The notes: generated by a model not told the origin, from the sequence alone. DNA of 55,740 nucleotides from Candidatus Thorarchaeota archaeon (GCA_019894665.1 JAGXOC010000006.1:1-55740); one strand, 5' to 3'. Shown: positions 11,486-27,339, counted from the stretch's first letter. Made by a program: numbers and translations.

Positions 11486-11562
11486 GGGCCGATAGATCAG
11501 CCTGGCAGATCGTCTGGTTTGCATCCAGAAGGTCGCGAGTTCAAATCTCGCTCGGTCCACCA
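11486..11562 (+). tRNA. tRNA-Ala (anticodon UGC), genomically encoded CCA
   Basis: Hand-folded cloverleaf. Acceptor GGGCCGA/TCGGTCC contains the G3:U70 Ala identity pair. D arm is GATC..GATC. Anticodon stem TCTGG/CCAGA has loop TT-TGC-AT. T arm GCGAG/CTCGC has loop TTCAAAT. Discriminator A is followed by CCA. Confidence 0.9.
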
Positions 11563-20348: not shown

Positions 20349-20720
20349 CTAGTAACCCCATTCCTGCCCTTGTCTTTGACGATACCATCTCTGTCCTTTC
20401 TTAGTGAGAGAGTATTGTCCTTGGATCTCTGATAGAAGCCCCATTTCCACCATGTTGCGAAGCACGCCGAACAGTTTGTCATCTGAGGCTCCTGTGACCT
20501 CTTGGAGTCCGGGGAAGTTCATCTTCCCATTTCTTTTCAGATGCTGAGCAATGTCGTACTTGCCAACTGATCTAGTTTCAGTTCGCACTATGATGTGGCC
20601 GCAGTTTGTGCAGAGGAGGTCTCCTTTGTTATCATCGCGGGCGACTTCCTTACTACCACAGATCGGGCAGGTCGTCTTTGAGAATCTTAGTGAACGTCGA
20701 TGTGACATAATTCCGACCAA
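20349..20720 (-). CDS. Small TFIIB-type zinc-ribbon plus winged-helix protein
   Basis: CPICGSKEVARDDNKGDLLCTNCGHII matches the TFIIB zinc-ribbon pattern. The C-terminal ..LRNMVEMGLLSEIQGQYSLTKKG.. looks like a wHTH. Confidence 0.65.
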   Translation of the reverse strand: MVGIMSHRRSLRFSKTTCPICGSKEVARDDNKGDLLCTNCGHIIVRTETRSVGKYDIAQHLKRNGKMNFPGLQEVTGASDDKLFGVLRNMVEMGLLSEIQGQYSLTKKGQRWYRQRQGQEWGY

Positions 20721-20771: not shown

Positions 20772-21290
20772 CTACTGCTTCTCTGAAACGAGGTCTCTGA
20801 AGAATGCCTCATAGTCTATCTCAAAGGGTACTCGAAGACCTAACCGCACTTTCTTTCCTGCTTGGTCAATCTCAATATATCCCTGTTTCTGCAACTCCCT
20901 CAAATCATCCATTACTCCCCTCAGGCTCTTCTTACGAAACTCCCGCACTCGGTCATAAGAGACCCAACCGCCTTCCTGATAGGCCAATGTGATGACTATG
21001 AGCAAGGTCGCAGCTAACCGATCCGGGAGCGCCGATTCTTCCTGGCTGATCTTTGACTGTATGGAAGTGTCGACGTAGAATACTCCACTCACCGGATTGT
21101 GTTTGATGGTGAGGCCAACTGGTTCCAATCGAGTATGCAATTCACCCAGGCGTCTGAACAGGATTTCTCTACCCAAATCCTCTGGGAGGCCAAGAGCATC
21201 AAGCATATCTTCTACTCCTGCACCGATGGGGTCTCCTGACCTAGTTAGGAGTTTCATAAGGATGGCATACTCGTTCATTGTGTCCAACAC
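20772..21290 (-). CDS. ScpB-like tandem winged-helix (kite) protein
   Basis: 172 aa. ILMKLLTRSGDPIGAGVEDMLDALGL...LGELHTRLEPVGLTIKHNPVSGVFYVDT and LPDRLAATLLIVITLAYQEGGWVSYDRVREFR..GVMDDLRELQKQGYIE follow the two-WH ScpB pattern (EALLF..gePl...; LS.aaLEtLAIIAY.qP.tr.ei..iRG). Confidence 0.55.
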   Translation of the reverse strand: MLDTMNEYAILMKLLTRSGDPIGAGVEDMLDALGLPEDLGREILFRRLGELHTRLEPVGLTIKHNPVSGVFYVDTSIQSKISQEESALPDRLAATLLIVITLAYQEGGWVSYDRVREFRKKSLRGVMDDLRELQKQGYIEIDQAGKKVRLGLRVPFEIDYEAFFRDLVSEKQ

Positions 21291-21310
21291 CCATGCAAAC
21301 CTGTCTGTTG

Positions 21311-21318
21311 TTTAAAAT
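21311..21318 (-). promoter_or_regulatory. TATA box for the ScpB-like gene (near-leaderless)
   Basis: The minus strand reads ATTTTAAA, centred ~24 nt upstream of the ATG at 21290. Confidence 0.35.
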
Positions 21319-21416
21319 CTGAGGGTCTCGTTTTTTCAATCAAGCAAAGGGCGCCACGTTGTTAAGTATAGTAACAATATGTGACTTCATTCTGTGACCC
21401 TCACAAGTGGCTTCGC

Positions 21417-21424
21417 TATATATA
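21417..21424 (+). promoter_or_regulatory. TATA box for the micro-ORF/MFS transcription unit
   Basis: TATATATA is centred ~36 nt upstream of the ATG at 21457, which implies a ~10-nt leader. Confidence 0.45.
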
Positions 21425-21456
21425 CCAAAACTGACGAGTATTCCTTGTGAAATATC

Positions 21457-21561
21457 ATGGCTCTAACAACTAACTCTCGCAAATCATCCGAGTTGAAGAA
21501 TAAGAAGTCCGTCTTTAGCACTGACGCTATCTCCTACGCATACGTCACTGTTGTAAGGTGA
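21457..21561 (+). CDS. Micro-ORF 1 (34 aa), paralog family
   Basis: Hand translation: MALTTNSRKSSELKNKKSVFSTDAISYAYVTVVR*. It shares N-terminal T(T/N)NSR and C-terminal (T/A)(D/E)A(I/L/V)..(A/T)Y..(V)RR with micro-ORFs 2 and 3. It is below the 60-aa track cutoff. Confidence 0.4.
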   Translation: MALTTNSRKSSELKNKKSVFSTDAISYAYVTVVR

Positions 21562-21576
21562 AGTGTTTGAACAATC

Positions 21577-21667
21577 TTCTGAGACATCTGAACTGGCTTT
21601 TGGTTGATCCAGTCGTGGCCCAGCGTGGTCATCCGATGGTCACAGATGTGGTCAGTTCGTCTCAGAA
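21577..21667 (+). other. Long interrupted hairpin carrying four phased GTGGYC(A) repeats
   Basis: TTCTGAGAC (21577-21585) pairs with GTCTCAGAA (21659-21667), and GAACTG (21590-21595) pairs with CAGTTC (21653-21658). The interior holds GTGGCC (21615), GTGGTC (21625), ATGGTCA (21636) and GTGGTCA (21648), spaced 10-12 nt apart. Confidence 0.45.
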
Positions 21668-21710
21668 ACAGCATATCCTGTGACCAGCCTATAGGAACGT
21701 GTGAAAGATA

Positions 21711-21821
21711 ATGAAATCAACTAACAATTCCCGATTGTTTCGTCTTGTCGACGAGACTCGATTCACTCACGTACAATCTGCTGAAGCACTGGCTTATGCA
21801 TACGCTACAGTAAGAAGGTGA
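21711..21821 (+). CDS. Micro-ORF 2 (36 aa), paralog family
   Basis: Hand translation: MKSTNNSRLFRLVDETRFTHVQSAEALAYAYATVRR*. Its stop lies in AAGGTGAAG, which serves as the SD for micro-ORF 3, 4 nt downstream. Confidence 0.4.
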   Translation: MKSTNNSRLFRLVDETRFTHVQSAEALAYAYATVRR

Positions 21822-21825
21822 AGAA

Positions 21826-21924
21826 ATGGCACTCGCAAAGATACAAGGAATTCCTCGTGTTTGGCAGAAGACTAAGACTGTCGTAACCACTGACGCAGTG
21901 GCTAGGACCTACTTTAGGAGATAA
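21826..21924 (+). CDS. Micro-ORF 3 (32 aa), paralog family
   Basis: Hand translation: MALAKIQGIPRVWQKTKTVVTTDAVARTYFRR*. It ends 5 nt before the MFS ATG, and its last codons contain the MFS SD (AGGAG). Confidence 0.4.
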   Translation: MALAKIQGIPRVWQKTKTVVTTDAVARTYFRR

Positions 21925-21929
21925 TTCAG

Positions 21930-23270
21930 ATGACTGAAGTTGTTAACATTGAAGAAACAGAGACGCAGGATGATCCAAAGGGATTCAGAGTAGTACTTGC
22001 TCATCGTGATTTCTCATTACTATGGTCTGGTCAATTAGTCTCTAACATTGGTACAGCAATCGCTTCACTAGCACTCATGTTCTATGCGTATGCCCTGACT
22101 GGGTCTGCTATGGCAATGGCAGTTTTAGCTATAGCTCAGACACTTCCAGTTGTCGCTTTTGCTGGTCCAATCGGTGTTTACATCGATCGATGGAACCGAA
22201 AGAAGATCATGGTCGCTTCTGATGTTGTCCGCGCAGTCGCGATTCTCCTCATTCCTCTGACAATATACTTCCCCTCTTTCATGCCCACAATCTATTGGGT
22301 TTACTTGATCACATTTCTCTACGCTACTGCTAATGCGTGGTTCTTTCCCGCAAGGAGTGCATCAATCCCCAATCTCGTCGAAGGCGATGAGTTGGTCGCA
22401 GCCAACTCTCTATCTCAGATGACATTTCAGGTTGTTCAGTTAGTAGTCCCCCCACTTGGTGGGATCCTTGTTGCATTCCTTGCACCTAATTACTTCCTAG
22501 CATTCGCTATCAACTCTGCAGCTTTCGTGTTCTCCGCATTTGCACTTCGAGGAATCACAACGAATCTCATCCCTAACCGTGTTTCTGATGACAAGGAGTC
22601 GCTGATGGCTCAGATGAAGCAGGGTGCTCGATATGTGATTGGTAATTCGATTCTCTCATTCCTCTTCGTATTTGCAATGCTCCTCGCGGGCTCATCAGGC
22701 ATCCTGAATGCACTGATTATGCCATACCTTGGAGGTGAGCTCGGTCTAGGTTCCGCTCAACTCGGTCTTGTCTTAAGCGCAGGTGCGGCCTCAGGAGCTT
22801 TAGCCGCAGTGTACTTTAGTCGCAAGAAGGAGCTTGAGAAACCTCTCTATCTCGTCACAACAGCTGGGCTCCTCGCAGGCGTTGCTATCTTTGCACTTGT
22901 CCTTGCATTTGACTTGGTGACTGTTATGTTGTCATGGGCAATGATTGGTGCAGTGGATGTCATTCTTAACATTCCACTTACTGTCCTTATGCAGGAACTT
23001 GTTGAAGATGAGCTGCGCGGTCGTGTCTTTGCACTTCTCAGTGTGGCATTCACAGCAGTGCAAGTTGTTGGAATGGGCATAGGTGGCGTCTGGGCTGAGG
23101 CTGTTGGATCAACAGGTCCTCCAATGATTGGTGCTGCCCTTGCGCTTGCAATCGTTTCATTAATTGGTTTCCTAGTAGTTGCTAAGCTGAACCTTCACGC
23201 AGGTCTTTCAAAACCAAGTGATGAAGTACCAGAAAACGAAGAGGAACTTCTAGTTGAGGTACCTGCTTGA
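21930..23270 (+). CDS. MFS transporter (EntS/DUF894-like efflux type)
   Basis: 446 aa with ~12 TM segments. N-terminal FRVVLAHRDFSLLWSGQLVSNIGTAIASLALMFYAY and the ..DRWNRKKIM.. loop are typical of this MFS subgroup. Confidence 0.85.
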   Translation: MTEVVNIEETETQDDPKGFRVVLAHRDFSLLWSGQLVSNIGTAIASLALMFYAYALTGSAMAMAVLAIAQTLPVVAFAGPIGVYIDRWNRKKIMVASDVVRAVAILLIPLTIYFPSFMPTIYWVYLITFLYATANAWFFPARSASIPNLVEGDELVAANSLSQMTFQVVQLVVPPLGGILVAFLAPNYFLAFAINSAAFVFSAFALRGITTNLIPNRVSDDKESLMAQMKQGARYVIGNSILSFLFVFAMLLAGSSGILNALIMPYLGGELGLGSAQLGLVLSAGAASGALAAVYFSRKKELEKPLYLVTTAGLLAGVAIFALVLAFDLVTVMLSWAMIGAVDVILNIPLTVLMQELVEDELRGRVFALLSVAFTAVQVVGMGIGGVWAEAVGSTGPPMIGAALALAIVSLIGFLVVAKLNLHAGLSKPSDEVPENEEELLVEVPA

Positions 23271-23288
23271 TCCATCAAGCAGACCTCC

Positions 23289-23300
23289 TTTCTTTTTCTT
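23289..23300 (+). terminator. T-rich tract after the MFS gene
   Basis: TTTCTTTTTCTT starts 19 nt after the MFS stop, consistent with archaeal oligo-T termination. It overlaps the convergent ScpA-like 3' end. Confidence 0.3.
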
Positions 23301-23967
23301 AAGTTGTGTCAACATCTGACACTGAGGGTCTCCAGATCTCTCGTGTTTCAGGATTATAGTGTAACTGCCCCTTGGAGACCAAGATTACTACATAGAGGAA
23401 GTGTTTGAGAAACAAATCAAACTCTTCATTCATCACAAGATCATCGAACTTGATTTTCTTGTCCTCTGAAATTGTTGCTAGGAATCGTTCCAAATCCTCA
23501 AGAAAGACAGAATCTTCAGTATCGAAAGCAAATCCATTTGGTAGTGTCGTGATCTTGGGAATTGGATCTTCAGGGGGCTCTCTTGACATTGCCTCAATCA
23601 GCGTCAGAATTCGATTGAGTGCATCTCCAAGTGAATCTTGCTCTAGATGTCCTATGACAACTGGTTGTTTCATAGTCACCAACTTTGCGAGATTCCTCAT
23701 GGACAGCTCCTTAAGTCGGCTCACATAGATTTCGGGGGCTGCGAGTATTCGGGCAAGTTCTTGAACGCGATTGACCTTTGTACTCAGAATCTCATTCAAC
23801 ATCTCATCAATGTCAATCCGGCTGTCAATCTTGGCAGCCAATTCTTGAAGGTCTTTGTATGCTTGAGTCAATCGGAGTTCAAGTGGATCAATCTCACCTG
23901 TACGAACAGCTTGCACCATGTTGAAGACACTCTCGGCAAGACTTTCGTTTTCACTCACGACTATCAC
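23299..23967 (-). CDS. Kleisin (ScpA-like) subunit
   Basis: GTG start 3 nt after the SMC stop. N-terminal ..GEIDPLELRLTQAYKDLQEL.. and C-terminal winged-helix-like ..FLKHFLYVVILVSKGQLHYNPETREIW follow the ScpA N- and C-terminal patterns. Confidence 0.6.
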   Translation of the reverse strand: MIVVSENESLAESVFNMVQAVRTGEIDPLELRLTQAYKDLQELAAKIDSRIDIDEMLNEILSTKVNRVQELARILAAPEIYVSRLKELSMRNLAKLVTMKQPVVIGHLEQDSLGDALNRILTLIEAMSREPPEDPIPKITTLPNGFAFDTEDSVFLEDLERFLATISEDKKIKFDDLVMNEEFDLFLKHFLYVVILVSKGQLHYNPETREIWRPSVSDVDTT

Positions 23968-23970
23968 TCT

Positions 23971-26900
23971 CTACTGAGTCTTGAACTTGGGGCTCTCGAT
24001 TATTAGCGAGGGTTCAACACTATTTGGTGAAACGACACCCAATATTTTGTCAGCATGTTTAAGCAAGTGTGTACTTTTGGCTGGAGTGAGCAGAATGAAC
24101 TGGCTACGCCGGGACGCATCATGAAACAGGCGACTAACAAGTTCTGTGTTTGTTGCGTCTAGAAATGTATCAACTTCATCCATAACGTACACCGGTGCAG
24201 GATTGAACCTCTGCAATGCAAGTATCAGGCTAATTGCAATTAGGGACCTTTCTCCACCAGATCCCGCGCTGATATCACCAAAGCCCTCCGTTTTGATTCT
24301 TGATTTGAATTCCACTCCATATTTTCCATCTCTGAGAGCAAGCTCGAATCTGACACTGCCTGGGAATTGTACTCGCCCCAAAACCTCGTTCACACCCTTC
24401 TCCACCTTTCGAAGAGTTTCATTCATTCCGTTGTGATATTGCTCTCTGATGTTCTGTACTGCAGACTCTGCTTCATCCAGTTCCTCGCCTAGCTCAGCCA
24501 CACGTTTAACAAGTTCTCTTAGCCTGCCCTTCAATTGGGTCTCTGTATGAGCCACAGTTTCCGAAACATCCTGATAGTCATCTAGGATATGTCTAAGTTT
24601 TACGAGTTCGCTCCTAACAAGGTCGATACCTCTGATGTTATCAGGTCTGCTTTTTCCTTCAATTTCCTGTTCAACTAATTCAAGATCATACTCTAGGTTT
24701 GTCAGTTGCCTTTTTGATTGCAAGACCTCAACCCTACGGGTTTTCACAAGTAGATTCAGTTCAATCAGTCGCTCACTCAATGTGCGTGATGTCTTCCTAA
24801 TCTCTGCAAGTTCCTCTCTGATCTTTGTTTGTCCTTTCTTTGTTTCCTCTCTTCCAGTACGCATGACCTCTATCTTATCAAGAATTGAGGATGCTGCATT
24901 CTTTGACTCTTTGATATCCTTACGCAAGTCAGTGAGGCTATCAGATTGCATTGTGATACTCTCTCTGATTCTCTTCAGTTCCTGACGTTTGAGATCTTCA
25001 TCCCTCTCAGAGGCATGTGCTTTGTTGTCGACCTTCGTCAGGTCACTCTGAAGACGTCGGTACTTTGTTCGGATTGCAGACTCCTGTCCTACCAATCTGC
25101 TTCGTTCAGGAGGTTGTGTGCTGTCTAGTTTTCTGAGGTCTCTCTCAGACTTACCATAGTCCCGTTGAAGATCTTTCAGCTCATCATCAATAGATACTAT
25201 TCGTTCTCCAAGCTCTGGTATGCTCTCGTTGAGTTTCCGTCGACGTTCCCATGTTGCCCCCCAACGGGTCATCTGACTGATCAGGTCCATGGTTTCTTCT
25301 CGTTCATTCGAGAGTGTTTCCAATCTAGTCATGATATCTGTAACGCGTTTACGTTCTACTGTGAGATCCTTCTCGATTTTTGCCAAACGAGTCTGAAGTG
25401 GAGCCGTAGAGACCATTCCCGATGGCTCACTCTTTGGATGACTGACAATCCGCGCGTCATCAGGAATTGTCACAGAACCATCCCTAGTGACCGTTCGTAT
25501 ATTCTGTTTCGTAGCAAGTCGTGACGCTGTTTGAGAGTTCTTCACTAGAACGAAATCGCCGAATACTCTGCGTAAGAGGGATTGTGCCTCCGTATCTGCT
25601 GAGAGCCGATTCCAGAGCCAATCCTCGACACCAGCCCCTTGAGGTAACTCAGGTCTCTCTTGTACGCTCTCCTCTTTCAAGAGAATTATCGGGGACGGAG
25701 CCTCCTCTTTGTTTCGTAGCTTGAGTAGTAATTGATAATCAGAAGAATCCGTTGTGACAAATCCCAGTGGGAGGTTTCCTGAGAGGACTCCTTCCACAGC
25801 AGCCGCGATTTCATCATCAGCTGTGAATAAACTGATGAGTGGTCCATACACTGTTTCCAAATTGTGCCCTGAAATTGCTTCACTGAGATTTCTGACTGAT
25901 TCAGGTATGCGTTTTGAGGTTTCAGATAGTCTAATCTTGATGTCGTCAATCTCTTTCTGGAGTTGAGAAACCAAACTCGTTTTTCTGAATCGTTCCTCAT
26001 TGAGAGACGCAATTTCTCGCTCTAGTTGAGACTTCTTTCCTGCAAGTTCTTTCTCATCTGTCTTTTCGATCTTATCCCATACGTGGGACCATTTGCTCTC
26101 CATTGCTTGGAGCTCAGCTTCTTCTATCTGGAGTCTTTCACGTAGACTTCTCATAAGTAGGTCCTTGCCCTCTAACTCAGCCTGGAGTGCTTTGTAGAGC
26201 CCATGTGCTTCTGCTCTCTTCGTGTTCCATTCAGCAAAGGCTGCGAGCTCATCCCCTATTCGTGCTCGTTCATCTTCCAATTCGCTGAGTTCTTCACGTA
26301 GTATCTTCTGTTGGTCCATGTATTGTTCTCGTGCCGCGGACACACGTTCTAAATCCTCACTGAGCTTCTCCTCTGTTCGTTTCTCAGCCCTTACGTTGTT
26401 CTCAAGCTGACGAAGTTCTACTACATGCTTCTTAGAATCCCCTTCAAGCCTAGCAATGTTTCGTTCTTCTTCCTCAATCTTTGCATCTATTCTACCCAGT
26501 TCTGTCTGGAGCCCTGAAAGTTTGGTTTCAAGTTCTGTGCTTTCTTCTTCTTGTTCCGAAATATGGCCTTCAATCTCCCTCTGCTCTTCTATCACACCTA
26601 CAAGACCTGATTCCTTTGTTTCAATCTCATCCTTTACCTGCTGAATTCTGGTTGAAAGGTCATCGAAACTAGCCCACTTCAATTCCTGCCCCAAATCTCT
26701 TTCCTGATCTTGTAGGGCTCTCTTCTTCTCAAGCCTAGAGAGATCATGTTGCAGCAACTCAAGTTCTCGCTCTACTATCTTAGACTCCGTTAGAGCTGCA
26801 TCGAGTTTCTGACGACTCTGAAAAACTTCAGTCTCTTGTAATCTAATTCTATCCCGAAGTACATCAAGTCCCGTTCCCTCTTCTACGAGTCGTCTGACCT

Positions 26901-27339
26901 CAAAGGGATCCATTTCTCGTATTGCATTGATTCTTTCCTGAGGCATGAAAACCAAAGGATTGTCACTATCAAGTCCGAGAGCCCCAATCATCTGCTTATG
27001 CTCAACCGCCTTGATTCGTCGTCCATCTGCATAAGCTCTAGGGATACCATCTCTATCAATACGTCTCAGAAACTTTCTACTTTGCCCATTCACCTTTACG
27101 GTGATCTCAACCTCCGCCGTGCTTGCGCCGTGTCGGATGAAATCGCTCCACTTACTATATCGGTTCTCTCTTTGATTCGAACCAAGTGCGAATTTCAAAG
27201 CGTGGAAGATGGATGTCTTTCCTGAACCATTTGGTCCAGCGAGTACTGTGAGACCTTTATCGAACTCAGCTGTTCCTGCGTAAAAGGACAGAAAATTTCC
27301 CAATCTTACTGATTCAATATTTACCTTGGTTTCACTCAT
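23971..27339 (-). CDS. SMC-family ATPase, divergent (SMC5/6-like hallmark residues)
   Basis: 1122 aa. Walker A GPNGSGKTS, long Glu/Lys/Leu-rich coiled coils, a central hinge (..VYGPLISLFTADDEIAAAVEGVLSGNLPLGFVTTDSSDYQLL..), signature SGGERSL, Walker B VYVMDEVDTFLD and C-terminal SQFILLTP. Confidence 0.85.
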   Translation of the reverse strand: MSETKVNIESVRLGNFLSFYAGTAEFDKGLTVLAGPNGSGKTSIFHALKFALGSNQRENRYSKWSDFIRHGASTAEVEITVKVNGQSRKFLRRIDRDGIPRAYADGRRIKAVEHKQMIGALGLDSDNPLVFMPQERINAIREMDPFEVRRLVEEGTGLDVLRDRIRLQETEVFQSRQKLDAALTESKIVERELELLQHDLSRLEKKRALQDQERDLGQELKWASFDDLSTRIQQVKDEIETKESGLVGVIEEQREIEGHISEQEEESTELETKLSGLQTELGRIDAKIEEEERNIARLEGDSKKHVVELRQLENNVRAEKRTEEKLSEDLERVSAAREQYMDQQKILREELSELEDERARIGDELAAFAEWNTKRAEAHGLYKALQAELEGKDLLMRSLRERLQIEEAELQAMESKWSHVWDKIEKTDEKELAGKKSQLEREIASLNEERFRKTSLVSQLQKEIDDIKIRLSETSKRIPESVRNLSEAISGHNLETVYGPLISLFTADDEIAAAVEGVLSGNLPLGFVTTDSSDYQLLLKLRNKEEAPSPIILLKEESVQERPELPQGAGVEDWLWNRLSADTEAQSLLRRVFGDFVLVKNSQTASRLATKQNIRTVTRDGSVTIPDDARIVSHPKSEPSGMVSTAPLQTRLAKIEKDLTVERKRVTDIMTRLETLSNEREETMDLISQMTRWGATWERRRKLNESIPELGERIVSIDDELKDLQRDYGKSERDLRKLDSTQPPERSRLVGQESAIRTKYRRLQSDLTKVDNKAHASERDEDLKRQELKRIRESITMQSDSLTDLRKDIKESKNAASSILDKIEVMRTGREETKKGQTKIREELAEIRKTSRTLSERLIELNLLVKTRRVEVLQSKRQLTNLEYDLELVEQEIEGKSRPDNIRGIDLVRSELVKLRHILDDYQDVSETVAHTETQLKGRLRELVKRVAELGEELDEAESAVQNIREQYHNGMNETLRKVEKGVNEVLGRVQFPGSVRFELALRDGKYGVEFKSRIKTEGFGDISAGSGGERSLIAISLILALQRFNPAPVYVMDEVDTFLDATNTELVSRLFHDASRRSQFILLTPAKSTHLLKHADKILGVVSPNSVEPSLIIESPKFKTQ

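Follow-up and report, generated by a model that had tools for sequence, protein, structure and literature searches.

Is the stretch of 639 nt (21291-21929) that precedes an MFS transporter gene in a Candidatus Thorarchaeota genome really empty, as the public gene call on identical DNA suggests by listing no gene in it? The original prediction, made on the window (the whole stretch of 55,740 nt that was analysed), had placed in this apparently empty region of about 640 nt a strong box followed by three micro-ORFs chained to the transporter, and our recheck bore out its coordinates and translations. All the features described here lie on the plus strand. The box, TATATATA, is found at 21417-21424. 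ORF1 (21457-21561, 34 residues, MALTTNSRKSSELKNKKSVFSTDAISYAYVTVVR) is a long peptide that we call the P1 type, ORF2 (21711-21821, 36 residues) is a P1-like paralog, and ORF3 (21826-21924, 32 residues) is a short peptide of the Ps type. The MFS gene (21930-23270) encodes a 12-TMS-type transporter of 446 residues and of the DHA3 / MFS_3 kind, with acidic tails at both the N- and the C-terminus.

The chain itself is as had been described, with gaps of 4 nt (21822-21825) between ORF2 and ORF3 and of 5 nt (21925-21929) between ORF3 and the pump, and with the predicted SD of each downstream cistron inside the end of the preceding ORF. AGGTGA at 21816-21821, within the end of ORF2, would serve ORF3, and AGGAG at 21916-21920, within the two terminal Arg codons of ORF3, would serve the MFS gene. 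The string at the end of ORF2 recurs at the end of ORF1 (21556-21561); both AGGTGA copies consist of an Arg codon and the TGA stop, and the AGGT core of the ORF1 copy is invariant in a 20-locus alignment. This copy would serve an additional frame, ORFx (21567-21683), which was absent from the original prediction, as was an ultraconserved promoter (21369-21456). The extended operon in the window is made of ORF1, ORFx, ORF2, ORF3 and the DHA3 MFS pump.

Three ATG-ORFs of at least 30 residues in 513 nt would arise by chance with p = 0.04. Regarding the proposal that the three are paralogs, local alignments within the window against 20,000 shuffles agree with it, giving p = 2.5e-4 for ORF1 and ORF2 and p = 1e-3 for ORF1 and ORF3; the similarity of ORF2 and ORF3 was not significant (p = 0.28). 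The N-terminus that had been read as 'T(T/N)NSR' in all three holds for ORF1 and ORF2 only, and ORF3 has 'MAL' alone in common with ORF1. As for the C-terminal motif, its ST[DE]A..YAY module is conserved, whereas the final R or RR cannot be told apart from the SD that the following cistron needs: the terminal codons overlap this SD (AGG-TGA and AGG-AGA) and are explained by it. On whether the micro-ORFs are more than chance, we judge the comparison with related sequences to be decisive.

An HMM of the family found 76 instances in 36 related loci, all of them on the pump strand and just upstream of the pump, and no further instance elsewhere in the 55.7-kb window. Family members precede every Thorarchaeota pump ortholog that has upstream sequence, and the suspected coupling to the MFS gene proved tight and ancestral across these orthologs; distant pump homologs in other phyla showed no coupled micro-ORFs. 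The reading frames are kept in about 70 loci. One conserved Ser is written with six codons belonging to both codon families (AGY and TCN), the conserved Ala, Thr, Tyr and Arg use two to five synonymous codons each, and both CGN and AGG codons are used for the conserved Arg11 of ORF3. Furthermore, pN/pS is 0.41-0.62 in frame versus 0.8-1.6 in shifted frames, and dN/dS is 0.12-0.32 for the peptides versus 0.09-0.15 for the pump. The codon diversity and the dN/dS values sustain the earlier impression that the peptide sequence is conserved and not the RNA alone. Judged by these comparisons, all three micro-ORFs are genuine protein-coding genes, and they belong to a family of 27-37-residue peptides that is restricted to Thorarchaeota and undescribed until now.

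The basic unit of the family is a long P1 gene followed within a few nucleotides by a short Ps gene. The P1 consensus is MALxTNxR..KNK..ST[DE]A[ILV]xYAY..VR and the Ps consensus is MALAK...STxA[IV]xxxY[FL]RR. Conservation is strongest at the N-terminus and in the last 14 or so residues, the middle being variable; the conserved polar residues include N6, R8, K14 and N15, and the distance from 'ST' to the stop varies between 12 and 14 residues. The first eight codons of ORF1 are conserved at synonymous sites too (GCT in 24/24, AAG in 23/23). ORF2 is the fastest-diverging subfamily and ends in ...STMRC in other clades. ORF3 is the ortholog of the short partner in stand-alone pairs; among the 20 aligned P3 loci, 17 have it at -104 to -6 relative to the pump start, and in the other three it is offset or near the match edge. 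Operons carry from one to four copies, and there are several loci per genome.

The peptides are basic (pI 10.0-11.6, net charge +3 to +6) and hydrophilic (GRAVY -0.2 to -0.8), and contain no hydrophobic stretch that could form a transmembrane helix as in subunits of the AcrZ, MgtS or KdpF type. AlphaFold2 predicts a helix, with its highest confidence over the conserved ST[DE]A..YAY module. The original prediction did not recognise the family, and no library that we tried matched it: profile searches of Pfam, NCBIfam, PADLOC, PHROGs and PDB gave no family matches (the best PDB match, a MAPK11 helix with E = 0.6, is at chance level), a library of 1.84 billion proteins gave no matches beyond the family itself, and the IMG/VR viral contig collection contained no relative. 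The public records for family members read only "hypothetical protein", and literature searches, literal peptide strings included, returned no description of the family. A PqqA-like E-x-x-x-Y motif was dropped as a lead, given that it occurs in the P1 type only and no pqq genes were found.

Every operon of the family is headed by a nearly invariant promoter of about 90 nt, GT[CA]AC-N5-GTGAC-N8-GTGACC followed by TATATATA, which together with its operator is more strongly conserved than the proteins. In the window the operator-like tripartite motif occupies 21369-21399, upstream of the TATA box, and reads TA-GTAAC (21371-21375), N5, GTGAC (21381-21385), N8, GTGACC (21394-21399). The first half-site is GTCAC in most other loci, which yields the palindrome GTCAC-N5-GTGAC. 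The motif is nearly invariant in about 60 loci, stand-alone ones included. The pattern GT[CA]AC-N5-GTGAC-N7-9-GTG[AT]C has a single match in the window and 67 matches in 509 kb of fetched DNA, and 67/67 stand before a P1 gene. A transcription factor probably binds there. The predicted core promoter at 21407-21425, GTGGCTTCGC-TATATATA-C, joins a BRE-like stretch to the TATA box; it is the sole exact match in the window and is invariant across loci, and archaeal TATA geometry suggests that it acts as a promoter, with transcription starting about 26-27 nt after the TATA centre. A predicted short 5' leader, GTGAAATATC (21447-21456), conserved in all loci, would then precede ORF1. The string TGTGAAAnATnATG recurs before ORF2 (21700-21713). 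We discarded a C/D-box or k-turn reading of CTGA...GTGAAAT, which is a poor match and lies upstream of the predicted transcription start.

The nearest operator that we can compare is the glycolytic motif of Thermococcales, TATCAC-N5-GTGATA, which is the operator of TrmBL1 (PMC4706686). Both are palindromes with inner half-sites TCAC and GTGA and an identical 5-nt spacer, and both lie upstream of the BRE/TATA region. Nevertheless, the outer positions differ (8/12 match), the Thorarchaeota operator has an extra third site, GTGACC, the Thermococcales are unrelated to its hosts, and its cognate factor is only postulated.

Between ORF1 and ORF2, ORFx opens with TTG and runs for 38 codons across a conserved element to a TGA inside GTGACC. 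It is open in 20/20 loci from a conserved TTG/ATG column. We nevertheless rejected it as a conserved protein, because two frame classes read the conserved nucleotides differently, by clade, because locus L016 is frameshifted yet open, and because its dN/dS of 0.2-0.9, with depressed dS, reaches about 0.9. ORFx appears to be a translated spacer over a TGGTCA-repeat element. This element (21626-21686) comprises three TGGTCA copies at 21626, 21637 and 21649 (spacing 11 and 12 nt), GTCTCAGAAA, CATATCC and an inverted GTGACCA (21680-21686); it has the CTGTGACC motif in common with the promoter operator, and all loci in which it is found have an MFS gene downstream. Rfam has no family for 21291-21960 at gathering thresholds, with only chance-level matches at E up to 10. 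RNAalifold over 21562-21710 in 20 loci gave -9.1 kcal/mol with a covariation term of 0.05; 12 of the 13 pairs show no compensatory change on both sides, eight of them being wholly invariant, and a TCTGAGA/TCTCAGA stem is broken in the clade of L008, L010, L059 and L060. We dropped an RNA structure for this spacer as a lead, the fold being weak and without covariation. The element was also considered as a degenerate copy of the ORF1 promoter, and rejected, only the 14-nt TGTGAAAnATnATG stretch aligning (p = 0.06).

The family is not confined to this pump. We gathered 37 metagenomic loci with the pattern ST[DE]A[ILV][AST]YAY, and only 10 of them have a pump of the window type downstream. In at least 18, a long and short pair is followed by more than 1.7 kb of DNA without a tblastn match to the window pump, and in the 12 of these whose ORFs were listed no MFS-like gene lies downstream. 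The contexts of stand-alone loci include genes for aEF1A, desulfoferrodoxin and lipoate ligase; some such loci end in a hairpin and a T-tract, and in others a third small-ORF family, Q, comes next. In another locus type the peptides and the ORFx element precede two MFS_1 genes without BLASTP similarity to the window pump. P1 and Ps units are autonomous small operons, all under the same almost invariant operator-bearing promoter, and the genomic contexts in which they occur are of at least three kinds, one metagenome having yielded three types. MFS pumps have been recruited to them at least twice, and therefore the peptides have a clear genetic partner.

The window pump scores 116.9 bits against PF07690 (gathering threshold 33.4) and 97.4 bits against PF05977 (threshold 27), reaches 218.9 bits against NCBIfam TIGR00900 (2.A.1.21), below the cut-off of 319.6, and falls far below the cut-offs of the Mef and EntS models. 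By these profile scores it is related to the DHA3 / MFS_3 group and is not an equivalog of any named pump. The second linked transporter type matched only the general MFS_1 model.

What, then, do the peptides do? Our tentative first choice is that they are leaderless, trans-acting cationic peptides and that the pump either exports them or shields the cell against them. The data favour a trans-acting peptide over a leader, and fit an exported cargo as well as an intracellular partner; both the stand-alone pump-less pairs and the peptides before unrelated MFS_1 genes count here, the former supporting action in trans and the latter a functional link to MFS pumps. Because each SD sits in the stop region of the cistron before it, no pump would be made except from transcripts, and by ribosomes, that also make the peptides. 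A dedicated transcription factor reading the GTCAC-N5-GTGAC/GTGACC sites would switch the whole regulon, the ORFx element would fix the share of expression that continues beyond ORF1 into the distal genes, the peptides would be the products acting in trans, and the pump would be their dedicated partner, most likely an exporter or a self-protection device. This logic may be likened to that of multi-peptide leaderless bacteriocins, or of the PSMs, with their transporters.

The multiplicity and pairing of the peptides would likewise suit a secreted multi-peptide system, with its typical 3-4 peptides of 27-34 residues and a pI of about 11 (PMC6131525); the feature list of the multi-peptide leaderless bacteriocins covers lengths of about 27-44 residues (PMC6131525). 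Aureocin A70, garvicin KS and the cereucins are encoded by two to four tandem paralogous leaderless genes, the leaderless bacteriocins (27-34 residues, pI about 10-11, charge +4 to +5) are comparable to our peptides, and they too have a dedicated function in export or immunity encoded close by, here a presumed one (PMC6131525). However, aureocin A70 and garvicin KS are hydrophobic or Trp-rich, with GRAVY of +0.4 to +0.7 against -0.2 to -0.8 here (PMC6131525). LmrB, which exports the leaderless bacteriocin LsbB, is of the ABC type (PMC6131525), whereas the partner here is an MFS pump. Furthermore, there is no sequence similarity to the leaderless bacteriocins, antimicrobial activity of the Thorarchaeota peptides is only hypothetical, and the family is archaeal, phylum-wide and present at several loci.

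The PSMs of staphylococci are also encoded at several loci by tandem leaderless genes for peptides of about 20-44 residues; a single regulator recognises conserved sites in the promoter of every locus, and the Pmt exporter also protects the producer. The Thorarchaeota system resembles them in its multi-locus tandem leaderless peptides, its common promoter sites and its link to a putative exporter, but the PSMs are amphipathic and act on membranes, their exporter is of the ABC type and is encoded separately, and there is no homology.

Several observations count against the export or protection reading. To our knowledge, the cargo of MFS pumps consists of small solutes and of peptides that are short or modified, and does not include unmodified peptides of 3.5-4 kDa. 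The peptides are hydrophilic with conserved polar residues. They are retained throughout the phylum and evolve at the rate of ordinary proteins, unlike bacteriocins and pheromones, which as a rule are patchily distributed and change fast. At most peptide loci the available 2.4 kb contain no transporter, and no immunity protein is recognisable.

A possible alternative, to which we also give some weight, places the peptides in an efflux or stress regulon as small proteins that remain in the cytoplasm and bind a conserved cellular target or the pump, for example its acidic cytoplasmic tails; the pumps would expel a small-molecule stressor, and the same transcription factor would sense this compound. 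The phylum-wide conservation with dN/dS of 0.12-0.32, the invariant polar residues, the hydrophilicity and the many loci with no transporter nearby would all fit. The transporters linked to the peptides are MFS in both types, that of the window falls in a drug/H+ antiporter-like family, and palindromic operators are typical of ligand-sensing repressors. The pump tails are acidic in most lineages (the N-tail has a net charge of -1 to -4, except for +1 in two deep-clade loci, and the C-tail of -1 to -9) versus +3 to +6 for the peptides; nevertheless, this argument is purely compositional and binding is only postulated. MntS with MntP and SgrT with PtsG are examples of small soluble proteins that act on transporters. 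They offer an analogy, being hydrophilic, of about 40 residues and in the same regulon as the transporter, although they are single-copy, lack translational coupling to the transporter and share no homology with our peptides. Tandem multiplication with several loci per genome, which is unusual for regulators, also speaks against such an intracellular role.

The original prediction also raised regulatory leader peptides, an option that we now consider unlikely. As cis-acting uORFs, the micro-ORFs would work through their nascent peptides, either by ligand sensing in the ribosome tunnel or by stalling at the stops, and the junctions with SD inside the stop would gate re-initiation up to the pump, by analogy with the nascent-peptide sensor leaders SpeFL (34 residues), TnaC and the Erm and Mef leader peptides. 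Like these, ours have about 30-35 residues, a conserved C-terminal part, Arg as the last codon before the stop and a place directly upstream of a transporter or efflux gene. Peptides of 27-37 residues fit wholly in the exit tunnel, the strongly conserved last 14 or so residues and N-terminus are the part inside it, the stop-to-start gaps are 4-5 nt with the SD within the last codons, and ORFx, always open and free in sequence, looks like a classic translated leader. The pump also falls in the DHA3 group, which includes Mef(A), a pump under the control of a leader peptide. However, the option is weakened because the family is not specific to the leader region of this pump: the same peptides form stand-alone operons, some with a terminator-like hairpin, and precede unrelated MFS_1 genes, and whereas a leader ORF is expected only upstream of the gene it regulates, at least 18 pump-less pairs lack a gene downstream that they could regulate. 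Arrest peptides would not be expected to occur as tandem paralogs, the motif lies at a variable distance from the stop, the terminal Arg codons are accounted for by the SD, and stalling is only hypothetical here. We know of no nascent-peptide sensor leader in archaea.

Rather speculative, and in our opinion improbable, is that the long and short pairs are secreted Thorarchaeota signalling peptides, quorum-sensing-like or partner-directed, switched by one factor at the operator and released by MFS pumps. If true, Asgard archaea would have their first known ribosomal-peptide communication system, and here an MFS pump would export unmodified peptides of 3.5-4 kDa.

We hold to be highly improbable the RiPP-like option of the original prediction, in which the peptides would be RiPP or cofactor precursors, modified by enzymes encoded elsewhere and exported by the pump as a finished product. 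Small tandem paralogous peptides do adjoin an exporter and contain conserved Ser, Thr and Tyr, but they have no Cys, and their conserved ends and variable middle are the opposite of a conserved leader and variable core. No modification enzyme is conserved nearby in any locus type; the neighbours are SMC/kleisin-like, aEF1A, desulfoferrodoxin, hemerythrin, lipoate ligase and other genes, none of them common to the locus types. Finally, that the ORFs are untranslated and merely reflect a repeated RNA or DNA element, for which the nucleotide-level conservation of the ORF1 5' end and the ORFx region could be adduced, is effectively refuted on sequence grounds by the codon diversity, the frame-specific pN/pS, the dN/dS and the frames kept in about 70 loci, and Rfam has no match.

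No known group is more closely related to eukaryotes than the Asgard archaea, whose small proteins have hardly been explored. Here a phylum-wide, multi-copy peptide family without homolog or annotation was missed by standard gene callers, and its regulatory signature, the promoter of approximately 90 nt with its operator, is unusually well defined. Micro-gene operons of several cistrons can thus lie concealed in Asgard MAGs, in upstream DNA that looks 'empty'. Should the peptides prove to be exported, MFS pumps would have a wider range of cargo than is now known; should they act as nascent-chain sensors, they would be the first such system described in archaea, as far as we know. The family can be approached experimentally in three ways: with synthetic peptides, with a DNA bait that would capture the regulator, and by expressing the peptides together with the pump.

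Two minor resemblances concern C-termini. The Q-peptide C-terminus (EVLxLEAT) recalls the pump C-tail (..EVLLEVPT, ..LLVEVPA), and a few deep-clade tails look similar; two-way profile searches were not significant (E = 7.8 and E above 100), and we rejected this candidate, as we dropped a resemblance of the Q-peptide to the pump N-terminus. Regarding the family itself, a subset of the short peptides ends in L/M/I-Y-R, which recalls the HbYX C-terminus of proteasome activators, while most of them end in RR.

The three tandem micro-ORFs 5' of the MFS transporter gene are members of a micro-protein family of an Asgard lineage that is real, conserved and so far without annotation; it has a reproducible link to efflux pumps and is accompanied by a striking regulatory signature. 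On reading positions 21200-23400 together with the ORF listing, we recovered the ORFs of the original prediction with the same coordinates, translations, gaps and Shine-Dalgarno (SD) strings: ORF1 (21457-21561), ORF2 (21711-21821) and ORF3 (21826-21924), all on the forward strand, as are the TATATATA box at 21417-21424 and the pump gene (21930-23270). ORF2 and ORF3 are separated by 4 nt, and ORF3 and the pump gene by 5 nt. The SD AGGTGA consists of the last Arg codon and TGA stop of ORF1 (21556-21561) and again of ORF2 (21816-21821), and AGGAG (21916-21920) lies within the last two codons of ORF3, both for Arg. Annotation has missed the micro-ORFs: in the public gene call for this DNA, the stretch from the divergent gene upstream to the pump carries no gene. 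The predicted common 'TTNSR' start is found in ORF1 and ORF2 but not in ORF3. Within the window alone, similarity exceeded that of shuffles for ORF1 and ORF2 (p = 2.5e-4) and for ORF1 and ORF3 (p = 1e-3), but not for ORF2 and ORF3.

The gene behind them encodes an MFS transporter, as proposed (PF07690, 116.9 bits; PF05977 MFS_3, 97.4 bits). Its nearest curated model is TIGR00900/DHA3, with a score of 218.9, below the cut-off of 319.6, and the Mef and EntS models match it only distantly. Among the orthologs compared (L003-L037), most lineages have a pump with acidic cytoplasmic tails (21930-22001 and 23205-23267 in the window), the net charge being -1 to -4 for the N-tail and -1 to -9 for the C-tail; two deep-clade loci with an N-tail of +1 are the exception. 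The extreme C-terminus is kept as hhhE[VA]x[AVT].

Regarding the peptides, it is their sequence that is conserved, beyond the RNA. In orthologous alignments the conserved Ser of 'ST[DE]A' is encoded by AGC, AGT, TCA, TCC, TCG and TCT, Arg11 of the ORF3 orthologs by CGT, CGC, CGA, CGG and AGG, and the conserved Ala, Thr and Tyr by 2-4 codons each. Codon position 3 varies most, pN/pS is 0.41-0.62 in frame versus 0.8-1.6 in both shifted frames, and Nei-Gojobori dN/dS among close relatives is 0.12-0.32 for ORF1+2+3 and 0.09-0.15 for the pump. Because conserved residues use varied synonymous codons and the substitution rates are frame-specific, an RNA-only repeat is refuted as the source of the similarity. 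The terminal Arg codons (AGG in 24 of 25 ORF1 orthologs, AGG-AGA in ORF3) also provide the SD for the cistron that follows, and therefore the C-terminal R/RR cannot be counted as pure peptide conservation. The first eight ORF1 codons are frozen at synonymous sites too (GCT 24/24, AAG 23/23), which points to a further constraint on the nucleotides at the mRNA 5' end.

Orthologs of the pump number in the hundreds (56-90% identity) and are labelled Thorarchaeota or Promethearchaeota where named. We took 36 orthologous loci from species-representative genomes, and every locus with upstream DNA has one to four family members directly 5' of the pump, as ORFs of 26-40 aa with an ATG start. A family HMM made from 20 of them was searched against the window and all 36 loci, translated in six frames; it gave 76 instances, all on the pump strand and just 5' of the pump, with no further instance in the 55.7-kb window or the locus flanks. 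A three-peptide profile searched against 1.84 billion representative proteins recovered about 16 tiny proteins, all of this family and called 'hypothetical protein' or unnamed at source. The peptides had no match in Pfam, NCBIfam, PADLOC, PHROGs or the PDB, no member was found in viral contigs, and we found no description of the family in the literature. Most members end in RR or VR; the short peptides of L064, L065, L066, L069, L071, L072, L074, L080 and L081 end instead in L/M/I-Y-R, which has the form of the HbYX motif, the docking signal of proteasome activators for the 20S core.

These are autonomous, conserved small-protein genes, arranged in long-plus-short pairs with a common promoter. 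Scanning metagenomes for ST[DE]A[ILV][AST]YAY, back-translated, gave 37 loci, of which 10 have the same pump downstream and two (L077 and L082) a different MFS gene. In at least 18 of the remaining loci, over 1.7 kb of DNA downstream has no tblastn match to this pump, so the family is not a feature of the pump's leader only; none of the 12 pump-less loci whose downstream ORFs were listed has an MFS-like gene. The stand-alone loci always open with a long, P1-type peptide (33-37 aa), like ORF1; 8-12 nt further on comes its short partner (27-31 aa, MALAK...ISTxAIxHAYxYR(R)), the counterpart of ORF3. Some lie behind aEF1A and the gene of a 140-aa membrane protein, others between genes for a desulfoferrodoxin and a Zn-ribbon protein, beside lipoate-protein ligase and GHMP kinase, or in further contexts. 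A single metagenome holds a pump-linked (L084), an aEF1A-linked (L083) and a desulfoferrodoxin-linked locus (L071); since the P1 sequences of L083 and L084 are almost identical, both are probably from one genome, which would then have several peptide loci.

In some stand-alone loci a hairpin and T-tract stand right behind the second peptide. In the aEF1A-adjacent ones (L055:2683-2740; also L056, L063, L070, L073 and L083) a GC-containing hairpin, e.g. GAGATAG-TTTC-TATCTC, and a T-rich tract are immediately 3' of the last peptide's stop, which predicts a transcript of ~250 nt. In 14 stand-alone loci the third ORF is of the Q family (34-40 aa, ending EVLxLEAT), which is unrelated to the peptide pair and absent from the window. 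Q peptides are hydrophilic and start a few nt past the short-peptide stop (e.g. L071:2705-2812; range L061-L081, L086). A few deep-clade pump tails (..SEVALEAVT, ..TEVLLEVPT) look like Q-peptide ends, but profile searches both ways were not significant.

The ~90 nt 5' of the first peptide gene (21369-21456, forward strand) are almost invariant in about 60 loci, including the stand-alone ones and deep clades whose pumps are just 56-65% identical. The consensus is TA-GT[CA]AC-N5-GTGAC-TyCnTyyT-GTGACCC-..-AAGTGGCTTCGC-TATATATA-CTAAATCTGAGCAGTAtTTCTTGTGAAATATC-ATG. Its tripartite motif has 67 matches in the 509 kb of DNA that was fetched, each of them before a P1 gene, and one in the window. We infer that a dedicated transcription factor may read this operator, and the TATA geometry would place the transcription start near 21447, with a 10-nt leader. 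The TrmBL1 operator, TATCAC-N5-GTGATA (PMC4706686), has the same inner half-sites and 5-nt spacer as the promoter palindrome, a possible lead rather than an identification.

The peptide genes are chained polycistronically to MFS pumps in two independent arrangements. In L077, L082, L088 and L089 (e.g. L088:5650-9464) the order is canonical promoter, P1a, second promoter, P1b, ORFx-like element, Cys-rich small ORF and two MFS_1 genes (482 and 503 aa). The spacer ahead of P1b contains a TATA and differs from the canonical one, the ORFx-like element is a TGGTCAC element, the Cys-rich ORF has 40 aa (MRSETTPIDAAACVECAVFAFKGTLTSVVFHGCHERRCLY), and the two MFS_1 genes are mutually paralogous. Because BLASTP shows no similarity between these transporters and the window pump (E = 0.16), and micro-ORFs are not coupled to the latter's distant homologs in Thermotogae, Bathyarchaeia and other groups, the association arose at least twice within this lineage, which argues for a functional tie.

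Between ORF1 and ORF2 there is a conserved forward-strand block of TGGTCA repeats (21626, 21637 and 21649), followed 3' by GTCTCAGAAA, CATATCC and an inverted GTGACCA (21680-21686). It gave 27 nhmmer matches (about 24 distinct sequences), all at loci with an MFS gene downstream; it has no Rfam match, and no covariation was found. A fourth open frame, ORFx (21567-21683, forward strand), crosses the block; its SD and its TTG/ATG start are both conserved. It is open in 20/20 loci, in two different frames over the conserved nucleotides depending on the clade, and also in a frameshifted variant, L016. There (L016:2627-2782) a one-nucleotide deletion extends ORFx to a TGA overlapping the ATG (ATGA) of the ORF2 ortholog; it could be a genuine variant in which translational coupling is preserved, or else an assembly error. 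Since there are two frames, a frameshifted variant that stays open and a dN/dS of up to about 0.9 with depressed dS, selection appears to act on the nucleotides and the act of translation and not on the protein. CTGTGACC is common to this element and the promoter operator. The element might tune, via DNA or RNA, the share of expression that reaches the distal cistrons from ORF1.

The peptides have a charge of +3 to +6, a pI of 10-11.6, a GRAVY of -0.2 to -0.8 (hydrophilic) and no Cys. AlphaFold2, on the three-sequence alignment, predicts a single helix (mean pLDDT 70, highest at 83 over residues 21-30, the conserved module), a weak line of evidence.

Tandem leaderless peptides with a partner transporter are a kind already known from bacteria, and phenol-soluble modulins have a parallel organisation. 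So do the multi-peptide leaderless bacteriocins, with 3-4 peptides of 27-34 aa and a pI of about 11 (PMC6131525). New here are the peptide family, the MFS partnership, the operator and the ORFx element; the function we infer. By this analogy we tentatively favour leaderless, trans-acting peptides, which the pump would export or against which it would shield the producer. Against this stand the hydrophilic peptides, the phylum-wide conservation at ordinary rates and the lack of a nearby transporter at most loci; moreover, MFS pumps are not known to transport unmodified 4-kDa peptides. Almost as likely, these are small proteins that stay inside the cell as part of an efflux or stress regulon and might dock on the acidic tails of the pump. 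Cis-acting leader or arrest peptides, attractive for the peptide lengths and cistron junctions, are contradicted by the stand-alone loci and tandem paralogy and seem unlikely. RiPP precursors, having no enzyme association, are very improbable. Non-coding repeats are refuted, with practically no chance left.

Regarding the neighbourhood, the operon is flanked by a 172-aa winged-helix-like gene (20772-21290) and a 222-aa gene (23299-23967), followed by SMC (23971-27339), all on the reverse strand. The 172-aa and 222-aa genes may be ScpB-like and ScpA-like respectively, and neither has a Pfam match above threshold. The operon is wedged between them in most Thorarchaeota loci, the L023-L030 clade excepted. 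The sole Rfam or ARAGORN match in the window is a tRNA-Ala (TGC) at 11486-11562 on the forward strand. The gene set of the public contig also lacks a 123-aa ORF on the reverse strand (20349-20720), whose product combines a TFIIB-type zinc ribbon (PF08271, E = 1.9e-8) with a winged-helix-like C-terminus. Its identity among Thorarchaeota loci, 72-94%, is above the pump's, and it could be a candidate regulator.
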